29,362 bases of DNA from a virus (Duplodnaviria > Caudoviricetes), in the IMG/VR virus record IMGVR_UViG_3300027653_000042, positions 1 to 29,362 of that record; one strand, written 5' to 3'. Shown in pieces: positions 7,515 through 12,242 of the stretch. The notes beneath the pieces are model-generated. The model had not been told where the DNA came from, ran no database searches, and worked only from the letters and a program-made list of their open reading frames with translations. The position numbers and the translations under genes were made by a program. Every line of letters begins with the position of its first letter. Within the stretch, counting starts at the first letter, position 1.

Positions 7515-8132
7515 ATGACGACGAGAGAAATTGTACCGAGAGGGTACCTGAAGAACGCGAACGGGCACCTGGTGCCGGAGGATACGATCGATGCGTACGA
7601 CATCGCGCGCGATGAGCTGGTGCGTGAGCTCTCAGAGAAGGCCCGCACCATGCGCGAGGCCCTGAGCGAGTTCAAGTACGCGGCGATGGACGACATCGAC
7701 GCCTTTGTTGACCTGAGCGCCGAGCGCTACGATGTGGCACTGGGCGGCCAGAAAGGTAACCTCTCGCTGATGAGCTTCGACGGCAGCCTGATGATCAAAG
7801 TGCAGGTGCAGGATCGGCTTGTGTTCGATGAGCGGATCCACGCGGCCAAAGAGATCATCGATGAGTGCATCCGCCGCTGGGCGGCCGATGCCGGCGCCGA
7901 AATCAAGGCGCTCGTACAGCACGCGTTTCAGACCGACCGCGAGGGCAAGCTAAACATCAGCCGCATCCTCGCCCTCACGCGCATCGACATTAAAGACGAG
8001 CGCTGGGAGCAAGGGATGAAGGCTATTAAAGACTCGTTATCGACCGCTTCAACCGCGCGTTACATCCGCTTTTACGAGCGCGATGCACGCGGTGAGTACA
8101 CGCGGTTGGACCTTGATATTGCGACGGTATGA
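7515..8132 (+). CDS. DUF3164 family Mu-like early protein
   Basis: GYLKNANGHLVP...RDELV...KGNLSLMSFDG...YIRFYER pattern and synteny. Confidence 0.85.
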   Translation: MTTREIVPRGYLKNANGHLVPEDTIDAYDIARDELVRELSEKARTMREALSEFKYAAMDDIDAFVDLSAERYDVALGGQKGNLSLMSFDGSLMIKVQVQDRLVFDERIHAAKEIIDECIRRWAADAGAEIKALVQHAFQTDREGKLNISRILALTRIDIKDERWEQGMKAIKDSLSTASTARYIRFYERDARGEYTRLDLDIATV

Positions 8133-8629
8133 GCGACGATAAACGCAGCATACGCAACCGCGAGCTGGCGGCCATCCACACAGCGCGCCGCAACCTCGGC
8201 ATCGAGGAGGGTGATTACCGCGACCTGCTCGAGGTGTGGACGGGCAAGCGCTCGGCCGCGAAGCTGACATCAGCGGAGCGGACGGCGGTGATCAAGCACT
8301 TCCGCAAGATCGGCTTCGAGCGGCAGGAAGAGCGGCGTAAGGTGTCGATCCGCGACGACGAGGCGCATACGCAGGTCGGCAAGATCAAGGCGCTCTGGCT
8401 GGATATGTACGAGCGGCGGATCGTGCGCGACCCGGGCGGTCAGGCGCTCCGCGCCTATGTGAAGCGGCAAACCACCGGGCCGGCGCATCCGCAGGGCATC
8501 AGCCACTGGAACTACCTGACGCCGGCGCTGGCCAACGAGGTGATTGAGGGGTTGAAGCAGTGGCGCCATCGCGTGTTGCGCAACCGGGCCATTGCCGAAG
8601 GGCGCAAGCGTAAACGTGCAAGCAAGTAG
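8129..8629 (+). CDS. gemA: GemA / Mu gp16 family regulatory protein (DUF1018)
   Basis: LAAIHTARRNLG...YRDLL...TGKRSA and KIKALW...VIEGLKQW motifs. Confidence 0.9.
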   Translation: MSDDKRSIRNRELAAIHTARRNLGIEEGDYRDLLEVWTGKRSAAKLTSAERTAVIKHFRKIGFERQEERRKVSIRDDEAHTQVGKIKALWLDMYERRIVRDPGGQALRAYVKRQTTGPAHPQGISHWNYLTPALANEVIEGLKQWRHRVLRNRAIAEGRKRKRASK

Positions 8630-8634
8630 GATCG

Positions 8635-9099
8635 ATGCTCGATGAGTTCTGGGATACCGCCACGCCCGACGATCTGCCTGGAGACCTGGCCGAGATTGGC
8701 CATCTCCTGGGGATGGACGCGGCGCGGTATTTCGCCCTGCACTGGAGCGGATCGTGGCCCTACATCGCCGCGCACCGCGAGCGCTCGGCCGATCTCGACG
8801 AGATCGCCTACGCGCTGGGTGAAGAGGCGGTCCAGACGCTCATCGATGCATTCGGCGGCAACCAGCTCTACATCGCCAGCTTCAACTCTTTGCGCAAGCG
8901 CTACGCCTGGCACGTCATTAAACAAGAGTTCGACGGCCGCAACGCGGGCGCCCTTGCGGCCCGCCTGCAAGTGCCGAGGCGCTACGTGATGGAGGTGGTG
9001 ACGAGCGACGCCCCGCCCGAGCACGACCGCCCGCGCAAGATGGGCCCGGAACCGGGCCCTGCCGCCGGCGACGGCGCCCAGCTTCAAATTGACTTTTAG
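8635..9099 (+). CDS. Mor/C family transcription activator
   Basis: LGEEAVQTLIDAFGGNQLYIA...IKQEFDGRNAGALAARLQV; follows gemA. Confidence 0.85.
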   Translation: MLDEFWDTATPDDLPGDLAEIGHLLGMDAARYFALHWSGSWPYIAAHRERSADLDEIAYALGEEAVQTLIDAFGGNQLYIASFNSLRKRYAWHVIKQEFDGRNAGALAARLQVPRRYVMEVVTSDAPPEHDRPRKMGPEPGPAAGDGAQLQIDF

Positions 9100-9137
9100 A
9101 TCGGCGGCGCGTCCGCTTAAGCGACAGTTTATACACC
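9100..9137 (-). repeat. Truncated attC remnant with mutated core site
   Basis: GCGTCCGCTTAAGCGACAGTTTATAC aligns with GCGTCCCCTTGAACGAATAGTTAT of the intact sites; core GTT reads TTT; other arm missing. Confidence 0.7.
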
Positions 9138-9153
9138 AACAGGAGACAGACCG

Positions 9154-9399
9154 ATGGAAATGACGACAGATCGCACCGACGCGACTACATGGAGTATCGA
9201 GGACTTCGACGCGTTCTTCGCTGACCGCGGATTCGTCCTGGATGCAGAGATGGCCATCAATGACGATGACGTGGGAGCGGGCGTCGTAGCCGAAGGCCAC
9301 GCAAGGCTGCGCAATGTGATTACAATATTTATGCTGCTTGGCCGGGTAAGCAAGGCCGACGTGGATGACGCCATGCGAATCGTGGATGCGCTGCGATAG
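9154..9399 (+). CDS. Cassette A gene, acidic hypothetical protein (81 aa)
   Basis: AGGAG RBS; fills the space between the attC remnant and attC1. Confidence 0.75.
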   Translation: MEMTTDRTDATTWSIEDFDAFFADRGFVLDAEMAINDDDVGAGVVAEGHARLRNVITIFMLLGRVSKADVDDAMRIVDALR

Positions 9400-9401
9400 G
9401 T

Positions 9402-9493
9402 GTATAACGCCTGAGCTAAGCGGCGCACCGGACGCTACGCCCCGAGACAGCAACAACAGAAAACGGTGCATCCCCTTGAACGAATAGTTATAC
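9402..9493 (-). repeat. attC site 1 (92 bp)
   Basis: Minus strand reads GTATAAC-TATTC-GTTCAAGG-GGA...GCTTAGC-TCAGGC-GTTATAC, the canonical R''-L''-L'-R' layout with two extrahelical bases. Confidence 0.9.
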
Positions 9494-9497
9494 CGAT

Positions 9498-10106
9498 ATG
9501 GAAGTCGTAGTCACAAGTAGCAAGGATCTAAGGGCGATCGTCCGAGAGGAACTGGAGCGTATACATTTGAAGCGACCTGACCGGCGCACGTCTGGCGCGA
9601 GGGCGGCCGAGGCCAAGCTGGACATAGGGTGGCTAAGTAATGAGGAAGCACAGAAGGCCATGGGTCTATCACGTGCGACTCTCGCCCGCTACCGTGCCGA
9701 CGGTACGTTGCCGTACTCGAAACTCGGCCAAAACATCTTTTATAAGACGGACGACATCAAAGCGGCACTTCAAGGAGGCGTGCAGGGTGTCCATATAGAC
9801 GATATGTGCCAGCGGTTCAAATACCCGGAGGTGCCCACGCCCCCAATGCCCGAGCCGCTTCCAGATGCGCCGGGTATCTATTTCGTGTGGAGGGATGATC
9901 GCGTCGTGTATGTGGGACAGTCACAGAGACTTTCGTCTCGATGCCAGATCGGTAATCACGGTGTAATCAAGACGGGAGACGGCCTGTCGTGGCTCCTGTT
10001 TGACGTCAAACAACTTGTATTCGCCGAGTGCTTCTATATCGGCATCCTGCGACCGGCCTACAACGACGCTACACCAGATAGGCGAGGTGTTCTGAAAGCG
10101 GTATAA
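9498..10106 (+). CDS. Cassette B gene, HTH_17 fused to GIY-YIG-like nuclease domain
   Basis: WLSNEEAQKAMGLSRATLARYRADGTLPYSKLG HTH plus PGIYFVW...VVYVGQS...L..R GIY-YIG motif; stop TAA lies in the core site. Confidence 0.8.
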   Translation: MEVVVTSSKDLRAIVREELERIHLKRPDRRTSGARAAEAKLDIGWLSNEEAQKAMGLSRATLARYRADGTLPYSKLGQNIFYKTDDIKAALQGGVQGVHIDDMCQRFKYPEVPTPPMPEPLPDAPGIYFVWRDDRVVYVGQSQRLSSRCQIGNHGVIKTGDGLSWLLFDVKQLVFAECFYIGILRPAYNDATPDRRGVLKAV

Positions 10107-10226
10107 CGGATGGCCGCTCTGCCGCGCAGGGCATCACCAAGACACCAACGAAGACATGAACGACAACATGAGCACGACGGATCAGACGAGCGAGAGCCCT
10201 GCGTCGGCAGCAGCGGCGGGTTATGT
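10101..10226 (-). repeat. attC site 2 (126 bp, different attC family)
   Basis: Plus-strand arms CCGCTCTGCCGCGCAGGGC and GCCCTGCG(T)CGGCAG(C)AGCGG are perfect complements except two extrahelical bases; flanked by GTATAAC and GTTATGT. Confidence 0.88.
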
Positions 10227-10395
10227 GGGCGACCTGCGCCAAACCGTGTACCCTCACGGGGGCTCTCGCATCTGGGTCGAGGAACCCGACGGATCGCGCA
10301 ACCTGATCGCGGACACCTACACGACAGCCGAGTACGCCGAGGCCGTCCGCGACTTCACGGAGAAGTGGCTTCGAGACAACTCCGAGGCCACATAA
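10156..10395 (+). CDS. Cassette C gene, hypothetical protein (79 aa; start inside attC2)
   Basis: ATG at 10156/10168 lies in the attC2 loop; stop TAA lies in the next core site. Confidence 0.7.
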   Translation: MNDNMSTTDQTSESPASAAAAGYVGDLRQTVYPHGGSRIWVEEPDGSRNLIADTYTTAEYAEAVRDFTEKWLRDNSEAT

Positions 10396-10480
10396 CGCCT
10401 GAGTTAAGGGGCGCACCGGACGCTGCGCCCCGACATAGCACGACCCGTTACGGTGCGTCCCCTTGAACGAATAGTTATGT
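10390..10480 (-). repeat. attC site 3 (91 bp, near-copy of attC1)
   Basis: Plus-strand arms GTTAAGGGGCGCACCG and CGGTGCG(T)CCCCTT(G)AAC with extrahelical T and G; 6-bp and 5-bp spacers to the AAC and GTT cores. Confidence 0.92.
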
Positions 10481-10484
10481 TGCT

Positions 10485-10808
10485 ATGACCCACGAAGATT
10501 ACCTCGAATACGAGCGGCAAAAAGCGCACGCGGAAGACCACGAAGCCTTTCTCGCTGAAGAACAAAACTTTCGATGGGCCTACGCCCTCCTCGTTGAGCT
10601 TGCCAAGGAGGAACTACGCAAGGCGAACGATTTGCGGGAGAGCCCAAATGATTGGCCTGCCGGGCAAGAATGGAGCGACCTCGCTGCTACAAGCCAAAGC
10701 ATCTTTCTCTGTAAAGCACGCGAGCGTTGCGGGATCGACCACGACCAATTTCTCGAGCCGATTCGGTCGGGACGGTACGACGTGGACGACTTAGTGCAGG
10801 CAACATAA
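10485..10808 (+). CDS. Cassette D gene, hypothetical protein (107 aa)
   Basis: Starts just after attC3; stop TAA lies within CAACATAAC. Confidence 0.75.
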   Translation: MTHEDYLEYERQKAHAEDHEAFLAEEQNFRWAYALLVELAKEELRKANDLRESPNDWPAGQEWSDLAATSQSIFLCKARERCGIDHDQFLEPIRSGRYDVDDLVQAT

Positions 10809-10822
10809 CTCATGTTATTGCG
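10801..10822 (-). other. Candidate attI-like simple site at the array head
   Basis: Minus strand CGCAATAAC-ATGA-GTTATGTTG: inverted core pair with no attC stem adjoining. Confidence 0.5.
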
Positions 10823-10932
10823 CCTCACGCGCGATAAAAAGGAACCTCCGCGTTCGGCCTCGAAAGAGAGATGAGCGAAGCATAGCTTCCACATCCCCGT
10901 TTTAAAGCACCGATTAAAGGTGCCAGAGATTG

Positions 10933-10971
10933 CCCCTGTCGCGCGTTGAGCGCGGCGGGGGTTTTTTGTTT
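10933..10971 (+). terminator. Rho-independent terminator closing the early operon and cassette array
   Basis: CCCCTGTCGCGC-GTTGA-GCGCGGCGGGGG stem followed by TTTTTTGTTT. Confidence 0.8.
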
Positions 10972-11011
10972 GCCCCGGCCTGATCCGTCCATCCTCCATC
11001 CCCTCATCGCC

Positions 11012-11530
11012 ATGGCCGAGGACAGGTTCCTGGTAGCCTTGCACGAGCTGCTTTCGCTCGAGGGTGGCTACAACGACATCGAGCAGGACCGCGGCGGGGC
11101 CACCAACCTCGGCATCAGCCTGCGCTTTCTGCAGTCGATCCGGCCGGGGGCGACGGCGGCAGACGTCCGGCGACTCACGCTGGAGGATGCCCAGGCGATC
11201 TACCGCATGCACTTCTGGGACCGCTACCGCTGCGGCGACCTGCCGAGGCCGCTCGACGTAGCGTTCTTCTCCATCGTCGTCAACCTCGCGCCAACGACGG
11301 CCGTGCGCGTGCTGCAAAACGCCGTGTGCCGGGCCGGGGTGCGGGTGGATGTAGACGGCATCATCGGCCCGCAGACGCTGATGGGCGCGGCTTCGGCAGA
11401 CCGCACCGAGCTCAAGCGCCGCCTGACGGCCGAGCTCTCGGTCCACTACCACAACATCGTCGCGCAGAACCCCAGCCAGCGCACCTTCCTGCACGGCTGG
11501 ATGTACCGCGCGGCCGCGCTTTTCATCTAA
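11012..11530 (+). CDS. Endolysin, glycoside hydrolase family 108 with peptidoglycan-binding domain
   Basis: EGGYND...DRGGATNLGIS catalytic motif; VDGIIGPQT; FLHGW..R; ATG at 11012. Confidence 0.93.
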   Translation: MAEDRFLVALHELLSLEGGYNDIEQDRGGATNLGISLRFLQSIRPGATAADVRRLTLEDAQAIYRMHFWDRYRCGDLPRPLDVAFFSIVVNLAPTTAVRVLQNAVCRAGVRVDVDGIIGPQTLMGAASADRTELKRRLTAELSVHYHNIVAQNPSQRTFLHGWMYRAAALFI

Positions 11531-11547
11531 GACACGACCGAGGCACT

Positions 11548-11907
11548 ATGGACGCCCTTATTTGGATTTCGGAGAACATGGAGCTCGTGCTGGCCCTCGC
11601 CGCCGTGGCCTACGCCATCCTTCAGCTCACATCATGGGGCCGCGCAAACGCGAAGGCATTGCAAGAGGTGGTCGACGCGATTGAGCATGTCGGCAGCTTG
11701 CAGCTCAGCACTGCAGAGGCGAGTGCCGTAAAGCGCGTGGTGGGCCTTGCGCCGGTGTCGCTCGGGGTGCGGGAAGCGATTGAGGAGGCTGTGGCCAAGG
11801 TCGACGTAAAAAAGCGGCGGCCGACGATCCTGAGGCAGGTGGGCCGGGCGGTGGTACCGCTGGCCATCCGCAGTATCCCGCGGCTGGTGCGTCGCATCTT
11901 TAAATAA
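11548..11907 (+). CDS. Putative holin-like membrane protein
   Basis: N-terminal TM (ELVLALAAVAYAILQL), basic C-terminus, adjacent to the endolysin; ATG at 11548. Confidence 0.55.
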   Translation: MDALIWISENMELVLALAAVAYAILQLTSWGRANAKALQEVVDAIEHVGSLQLSTAEASAVKRVVGLAPVSLGVREAIEEAVAKVDVKKRRPTILRQVGRAVVPLAIRSIPRLVRRIFK

Positions 11908-11915
11908 GATCGACT

Positions 11916-12242
11916 GTGGAGCCACTCGAGGTAGTCCGGGCGCTCTGGCCCATCCTGGCATCCGTCGCAGCCGCTTTCTGGGGGCTGGGGCGGATGATGC
12001 TTAAAAGCTATGAGAAGCACGTCGACAGCCGCTTCGGCACAATCGAACGCATGCTCAAGGCCGAGAGCGGCGAGGCGCAGCGGGTGCGGATGGAGCTGCA
12101 GGATTACAAGCTACACGTGGCTGAACACTACGTGGACCGCGACCAGTGGGTGAGGATAGAGGCCGGGAGAGACATCACGCTCCGGCAGATGAACAAGGAA
12201 TTGCGAGAAATAGCCGCCGAACTGGCGCGCCTGAGTAAATGA
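11916..12242 (+). CDS. Single-TM coiled-coil protein (Mu gp25-like position)
   Basis: N-terminal TM followed by a helical region; precedes the gp26/gp27-like genes. Confidence 0.65.
   Translation: MEPLEVVRALWPILASVAAAFWGLGRMMLKSYEKHVDSRFGTIERMLKAESGEAQRVRMELQDYKLHVAEHYVDRDQWVRIEAGRDITLRQMNKELREIAAELARLSK

Follow-up and report, generated by a model that had tools for sequence, protein, structure and literature searches.

Results

An attC cassette array lies between Mor and the endolysin of a Mu-like phage

The window, by which we mean the whole 29,362-nt stretch of DNA analysed here, is the entire 29.4-kb record of a Mu-like phage and is 76% complete. Its genes run in the order repressor, Mu transposase, MuB-like ATPase, DUF3164, GemA and Mor, followed by endolysin, terminase and structural genes. 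Four small plus-strand ORFs with attC sites between them occupy the interval from the end of the Mor-family activator (8635..9099, plus strand), which adjoins the array on the left, to the start of the GH108 endolysin (11012..11530, plus strand), which adjoins it on the right. An intrinsic-terminator-like hairpin (10932..10970, on the strand of the genes) lies downstream of the array and of the site described below. A search of 8000-11300 returned no sigma-70-like promoter, and hence no Pc reading from the site into the cassettes; Rfam gave no match in 8000-12000.

Read on the minus strand, cassette D (10396..10808) comprises a plus-strand ORF of 107 aa (10485-10808), for which no PHROG or Pfam family was found, and an attC site at 10390-10480. 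Cassette C (10107..10395) carries a plus-strand ORF (10156-10395) that starts inside the loop of its attC (10101-10226), cassette B (9408..10106) a plus-strand ORF with an HTH_17 N-terminal part (9498-10106) and an attC at about 9402-9493, and cassette A (9102..9407) a plus-strand ORF (9154-9399) and half an attC (9102-9137) consisting of the R''/L'' arm only. The sites at 10390-10480 and 10101-10226 were called on the minus strand by a heuristic finder and both fold with z of about -3. This finder misses real sites, among them the one at 9402-9493, which is below its cut-off, folds weakly and was assigned by arms 87-90% identical to those of the site at 10390-10480.

When the attC sites are read on the minus strand, their extrahelical (unpaired) bases lie on the R''-L'' arm, the side on which they are expected (Nivina et al. 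2016, PMC5027507), and every cassette begins with the complement of its own R''. The array therefore reads on the minus strand, with its genes antisense to attC and the site at its head, as the preliminary description had placed it. The same extrahelical bases rule out a plus-strand reading in which the site would be a truncated last attC. The ORF strands show that the cassette genes point toward the landing site; being antisense to attC, they would be read with a phage transcript coming from the tail end of the array.

Several further features of these arrays were recorded. The half attC at 9102-9137 is fused to the Mor stop codon, an arrangement that would lock cassette A in place, and a contig of run X3 joins 9101 to an attC R' arm (joint 9101>10393). 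Cassette genes that start within an attC loop and read through its arm occur in the window (10156-10226) and also in metagenome stretches L085, L088 and L089. One cassette of L085 (529-1317, minus strand) encodes a Mom-like DNA modification protein (phrog_1384). On the other side of the array, 10854-10885 (plus strand) looks like the remaining C-terminal end of a small HTH gene; the sequence before 10854 differs in relatives from X2, X3 and X9, that of X3 resembling the last part of the L088 HTH gene, and the stub is probably what is left of a regulator deleted between the site and the lysis genes.

The head of the array has an attI-like layout

The minus-strand string GAGGCGCAATAAC-ATGA-GTTATGTTG, described earlier as a simple inverted pair in the place where attI is expected, is present at 10826..10801, and the attC finder gave no site ending at 10809, so the claim that no attC stem precedes the first core stands. 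Folding of 10795-10870 yielded only small hairpins (z about -1). The site has no R''-L''-L'-R' hairpin with extrahelical bases, i.e., it is not attC-like. Its spacing is TAA-N6-TT, one base shorter than the TAA-N7-TT of attI1 in a plasmid record, again as first described. The limits given to the site require revision, since its right arm consists of the first bases of cassette D and the conserved element extends past the earlier end, to 10837-10841.

The conserved unit is a fixed left arm (10810..10839, minus strand), 86-95% identical to copies in L084, L085 (twice), L088, L089 and L090. It contains an L-like box, CAATAAC (10814..10820, minus strand), which alignment shows as CGATAAC in L084, L085 and L089, and a 4-nt spacer, ATGA (10810..10813, minus strand), which is GTTA in L089. 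The spacer has the same length in all seven full-length copies listed, a length that the search pattern itself fixed at N4; a relaxed N4-5 scan of viral contigs gave no further array head. The R box, G^TTATGT (10803..10809, minus strand), follows, with the crossover core placed by inference between G (10809) and TT, that is at C10809/A10808. On the plus strand the TAA of this core is the stop codon of the cassette D gene. The right arm is cassette DNA, since its sequence, TTATGTTGC, complements the cassette D R'' at 10474-10483.

Upstream of the core we found a feature missed in the preliminary description, a 9-bp dyad, TTAT(T/C)GCGC-N5-GCGCGATAA (10815..10837), which on the plus strand of the window reads TTATTGCGC-CTCAC-GCGCGATAA. 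L084, L085 and L089 carry a perfect version of it; in L088 and L090 its centre is inverted. The far half of the dyad, which is conserved, resembles an R box and lies 29 bp upstream of the crossover. The window contains a single TAAC-N4-GTTA motif, where 0.05 would be expected, and 5 of 100 shuffles reached this number, a modest signal when taken alone; the full boxed pattern had no match in 200 simulated windows.

A conserved left arm stands before different cassettes

We compared five runs (X2, X3, X4, X6 and X9) of the 20 listed with the window. One contig of X6 (643 nt, depth 3.9) carries a relative of cassette B (9710-10102, 34 differences) linked directly to 10805-11054, and the joint (10102>10805) falls in five shared letters, ATAAC. 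Cassette D is identical in X2 and X4 up to 10809, where the match ends; X2 then enters an attC-like arm. Cassette D also ends at 10809 in L085, L088 and L090, in all three of which it is internal. Since it is followed by attC and not by the arm in X2, L085, L088 and L090, the arm is not part of cassette D. Moreover, a piece spanning 10803/07-10837/41 stands alone in four runs of four studies (compared on 10730-10930) with 1-6 differences, and in X9 the stand-alone arm appears as nodes of 31-37 nt with a depth of up to 117 among the matches listed.

Five different first cassettes were seen on contigs, namely cassette D of the window, those at the head and at the internal copy of L085, that shared by L088 and L090, and that of L089. 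On the cassette side the runs add at least seven other loose ends, all different (one in X2, three in X6 and three in X9), so that at least 12 different neighbours are joined at one GTT core, although some of these are only short ends of assemblies (18 letters or more) and some may be chimeric. The contig of the window itself and L085, L087, L089 and L090 belong to one assembly, so that independent support is given by the runs and by L088.

Searched against viral contigs, the boxed pattern had two real matches, one in the phage of the window and one in G001, a siphovirus record of 42.5 kb. Seven of the eight metagenome stretches that it matched were real, one of them being the window itself and one G001, and the match in L086 was attributed to chance; a bacterial species set (GTDB) held no exact match. 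G001 has an HK97-like layout, is 62% complete and, by BLAST over the DNA compared, matches the window only in attC arms and in the landing site. In L085, L089 and the array common to L088 and L090, the arm stands at the head of reversed arrays that differ in their first cassette, and the gene of each such cassette ends on the core TAA. Six of the seven full-length copies lie at an array head or at a contig end, with no attC upstream. L090 overlaps the left end of G001, where the array runs on to a last G^TT at 2053, with no matching R'' in the next 10 kb; this last G^TT is probably the original right half of the site. The preliminary description had made its reading depend in part on conservation in relatives, and the arm is indeed kept in relatives and in another phage type, with the cassette changing at the GTT core.

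Some contigs depart from this layout. One in X3 joins an attC half to 10836 and represents a relative without the arm, which indicates that the arm is dispensable. In L085 (minus strand, about 904-985) an internal hybrid, which could be a misassembly, consists of the landing arm and 35 further bp, joined through GGAGCG to the R'' arm of an attC. A comparable fusion, with its joint elsewhere, is found in X2 record 4, and X2 record 3 shows a third upstream context behind 10841, unlike either phage type, which could belong to another phage or to a host integron.

No empty site was seen in the relatives examined. Other scans of viral contigs were set aside: an exact 17-mer had three matches, one in the same phage and two inside unrelated coding sequence; a relaxed dyad had 28, two of them the known phages and the other 26 without an attC within 2.5 kb by the heuristic finder; and a dyad-only pattern had three, one by chance. 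The same finder called no attC in the Mu-like and endolysin relatives L002-L017, and cultured phages and plasmids gave no real match to the region or to the site.

The attC sites are of a type found in chromosomal integrons

Neither the window nor G001, both incomplete (76% and 62%, respectively), contains a match to the recombinase family PF00589 or an intI gene adjacent to the site. The attC R''/L'' arm pattern matches eight genome stretches that hold chromosomal integrons, and all four integrases tested from these integrons pass the TIGR02249 cut-off. The landing arm is absent from the heads of the same integrons, which therefore show the attC type and not the host. The arm was likewise absent from 401 genomes of the order of G005 at one mismatch and from five genomes at two mismatches, and neither protein searches nor the atlas gave a clear host candidate. 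By eye, small HTH proteins of the Mu-like phage (window 19257-19469) and the siphovirus (L084 4123-4365) are alike, a possible hint of a common host.

Phage attC sites are substrates of IntI1 (Qi et al. 2023, PMC9892861), and the SOS response controls the integron integrase (Escudero et al. 2016, PMC4792948). Five chromosomal array heads adjacent to IntI have a TAA-like triplet (GAA, TAC, TAC, GAC and GAA) at N6; placement of the L box there is subjective, and four of the five heads, L093 being the exception, are backed by an R'' match. These heads weakly suggest that N6 spacing may be open to IntI. Both N6 and N7 occur at the presumed heads of other viral arrays, which were excluded from the counts.

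Discussion

The landing site is a real attI-like site. Of the two readings offered at the outset, attI-like or dif-like, the former is supported by a left arm that stays fixed as different cassettes follow it from the GTT core onward. Class 1 attI1 (NZ_AP027964.1; PMC12901181, PMC4792948) likewise has a fixed left arm, L and R boxes around G^TT and a variable right arm, and attI sites in general are described as simple double-stranded sites in which one box is degenerate; they are recognised through their sequence, and some have accessory sites as well (PMC4792948). The R-like box lies 32 bp upstream in attI1 and 29 bp upstream in the phage site, which also differs in its 4-nt instead of 5-nt spacer, in a near-perfect L box within the 9-bp dyad, and in having no intI alongside, no Pc found and cassette genes that face the site. 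Cassettes would enter the phage array at the promoter-distal end, in contrast to the Pc-proximal entry of bacterial integrons.

Arrays of attC sites without an integrase (CALINs) are already known from phages, as in the Shewanella prophage M16-3 and the Tetrasphaera phage TJE1, and in M16-3 a host-type attI stands at the head of the array (Qi et al. 2023, PMC9892861). The same paper shows neither a site common to unrelated phages nor a change of first cassette at a phage site. It also describes inverted GTTRRRY motifs at the boundary of the TJE1 array as a predicted terminator. In the TJE1 sequence (L136, 49197-49219 and 1-10) we find that the GTT of the first cassette follows an inverted GTT/AAC pair at a distance of 3 nt, and this "terminator" may, judging from its sequence, be an attI-like head of the same layout. 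The TJE1 cassette genes are sense to attC, whereas those of the window phage are antisense. In another unrelated phage (L022, 1270-4330), about ten reversed cassettes have a head whose spacing is N7, like that of attI1, and which lies behind a hairpin. Our literature search, mainly of open-access main texts, found no description of a phage-specific attI common to unrelated phages.

The fixed left arm, the change of cassette at the GTT core, the presence in two phage types and the IntI-type attC sites lead us to regard the site as a conserved junction heading phage cassette arrays, which likely works as a phage-borne attI fed by an integron integrase, probably that of the host. The double-stranded simple site (L box, 4-nt spacer and G^TT) would take up circular cassettes by attC x attI recombination. 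Host IntI would bind the L box and the R box, inserting folded attC circles; it may bind the upstream dyad as well, as an accessory box like DR1 of attI1. Resolution of an attI x attC junction by replication is established, and replication would resolve the insertion junction here. The cassette genes would be read by the early/middle phage transcript, from Mor toward the hairpin at 10932-10970, and new cassettes would enter just before the terminator and hence be last in the transcript.

A different enzyme is improbable. The same landing-site role could fall to a non-canonical tyrosine recombinase, encoded by the phage in its missing DNA or by the host as an Xer-like protein without the I2 helix; the 6-bp TAA-to-TT spacing is compatible with this and the phage records are incomplete, but the extrahelical bases of the attC sites are canonical and the arms of these sites are common to chromosomal IntI integrons. 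We consider it very unlikely that the site is dif-like and used by XerCD, as for IMEX elements. It has a dif-like 6-bp central region, its TAA-N6-TTA geometry is common to dif, and TAA-N6-TT is present in E. coli dif (NC_000913.3). Measured against E. coli K-12 dif, which is perhaps not that of the host, the site in the window matches at 8/11 positions in the right arm, 5/11 in the left arm and 1/6 in the spacer. This XerD-like right arm is cassette DNA, matching E. coli dif at 8, 5, 5, 5 and 6 of 11 positions in the five occupied copies scored, and at 6/11 in the inferred original right half in G001, while the XerC arm matches at 4-5/11 across copies (the host's dif may differ here too). A match of 8/11 is reached by 3 of 115 ordinary cassette starts. 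The site keeps neither a conserved XerD nor a conserved XerC arm, and its partners are attC hairpins. Least credible, to our minds, is a secondary site of the attG type (GWT consensus) hit once by chance. Insertion there needs little beyond GWT, and attG is, like the phage site, a double-stranded target off the integron (bioRxiv 10.1101/2022.09.11.507474); its targets are scattered over genomes and have no dedicated arm. The phage site has the GTT core, yet its arm is conserved across two phage types and four studies and reused with many different neighbours, which contradicts a single chance use.

The arm might instead be a collapsed, gene-less cassette, in which TTATCGCGC...GCGATAAC are the start and the complementary R'' and ATGA is an attC remnant, a relic at the array head passed on by phage recombination. 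Its dyad does show the complementarity of start and R'' typical of cassettes, an internal copy exists in L085, and in one contig of X9 the R' arm of an attC is linked to the upstream box (at 10837), which fits such an origin. However, the arm cannot fold as an attC, having no L''/L' stem beyond the paired R box, a relic would not acquire 12 different neighbours at one core, and six of the seven full-length copies stand at an array head or contig end without an upstream attC. As an account of the site we hold this to be unlikely; as the origin of the arm it may apply. The L085 copy and the X9 joint are equally compatible with an arm that moves as a unit of delta-attI type. In delta-attI-type cassettes, known from class 1 and class 2 mobile integrons (PMC12901181), an attI fragment replaces attC in the array, as in the internal copy of L085, where a 65-bp fragment is fused to the attC R'' arm at a 6-nt microhomology, and probably in X2 record 4.

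Beyond the landing-site reading itself, we put forward tentatively, and with rather less conviction, that the arm is a portable, phage-evolved attI of 30 bp, absent from the bacterial genomes searched, that passes between phages of unrelated kinds, perhaps in the form of a delta-attI unit, taps the host integrase and trades a shared pool of phage-type genes built antisense for the phage transcript. Phage attC clusters are usually seen as leftovers of off-target capture (PMC9892861). A conserved head site in a Mu-like phage and a siphovirus, with many first cassettes, suggests that such arrays are actively fed. The site also offers a short, testable substrate for how far integrases accept a non-cognate attI, and for how phages may run integrons without an integrase of their own.
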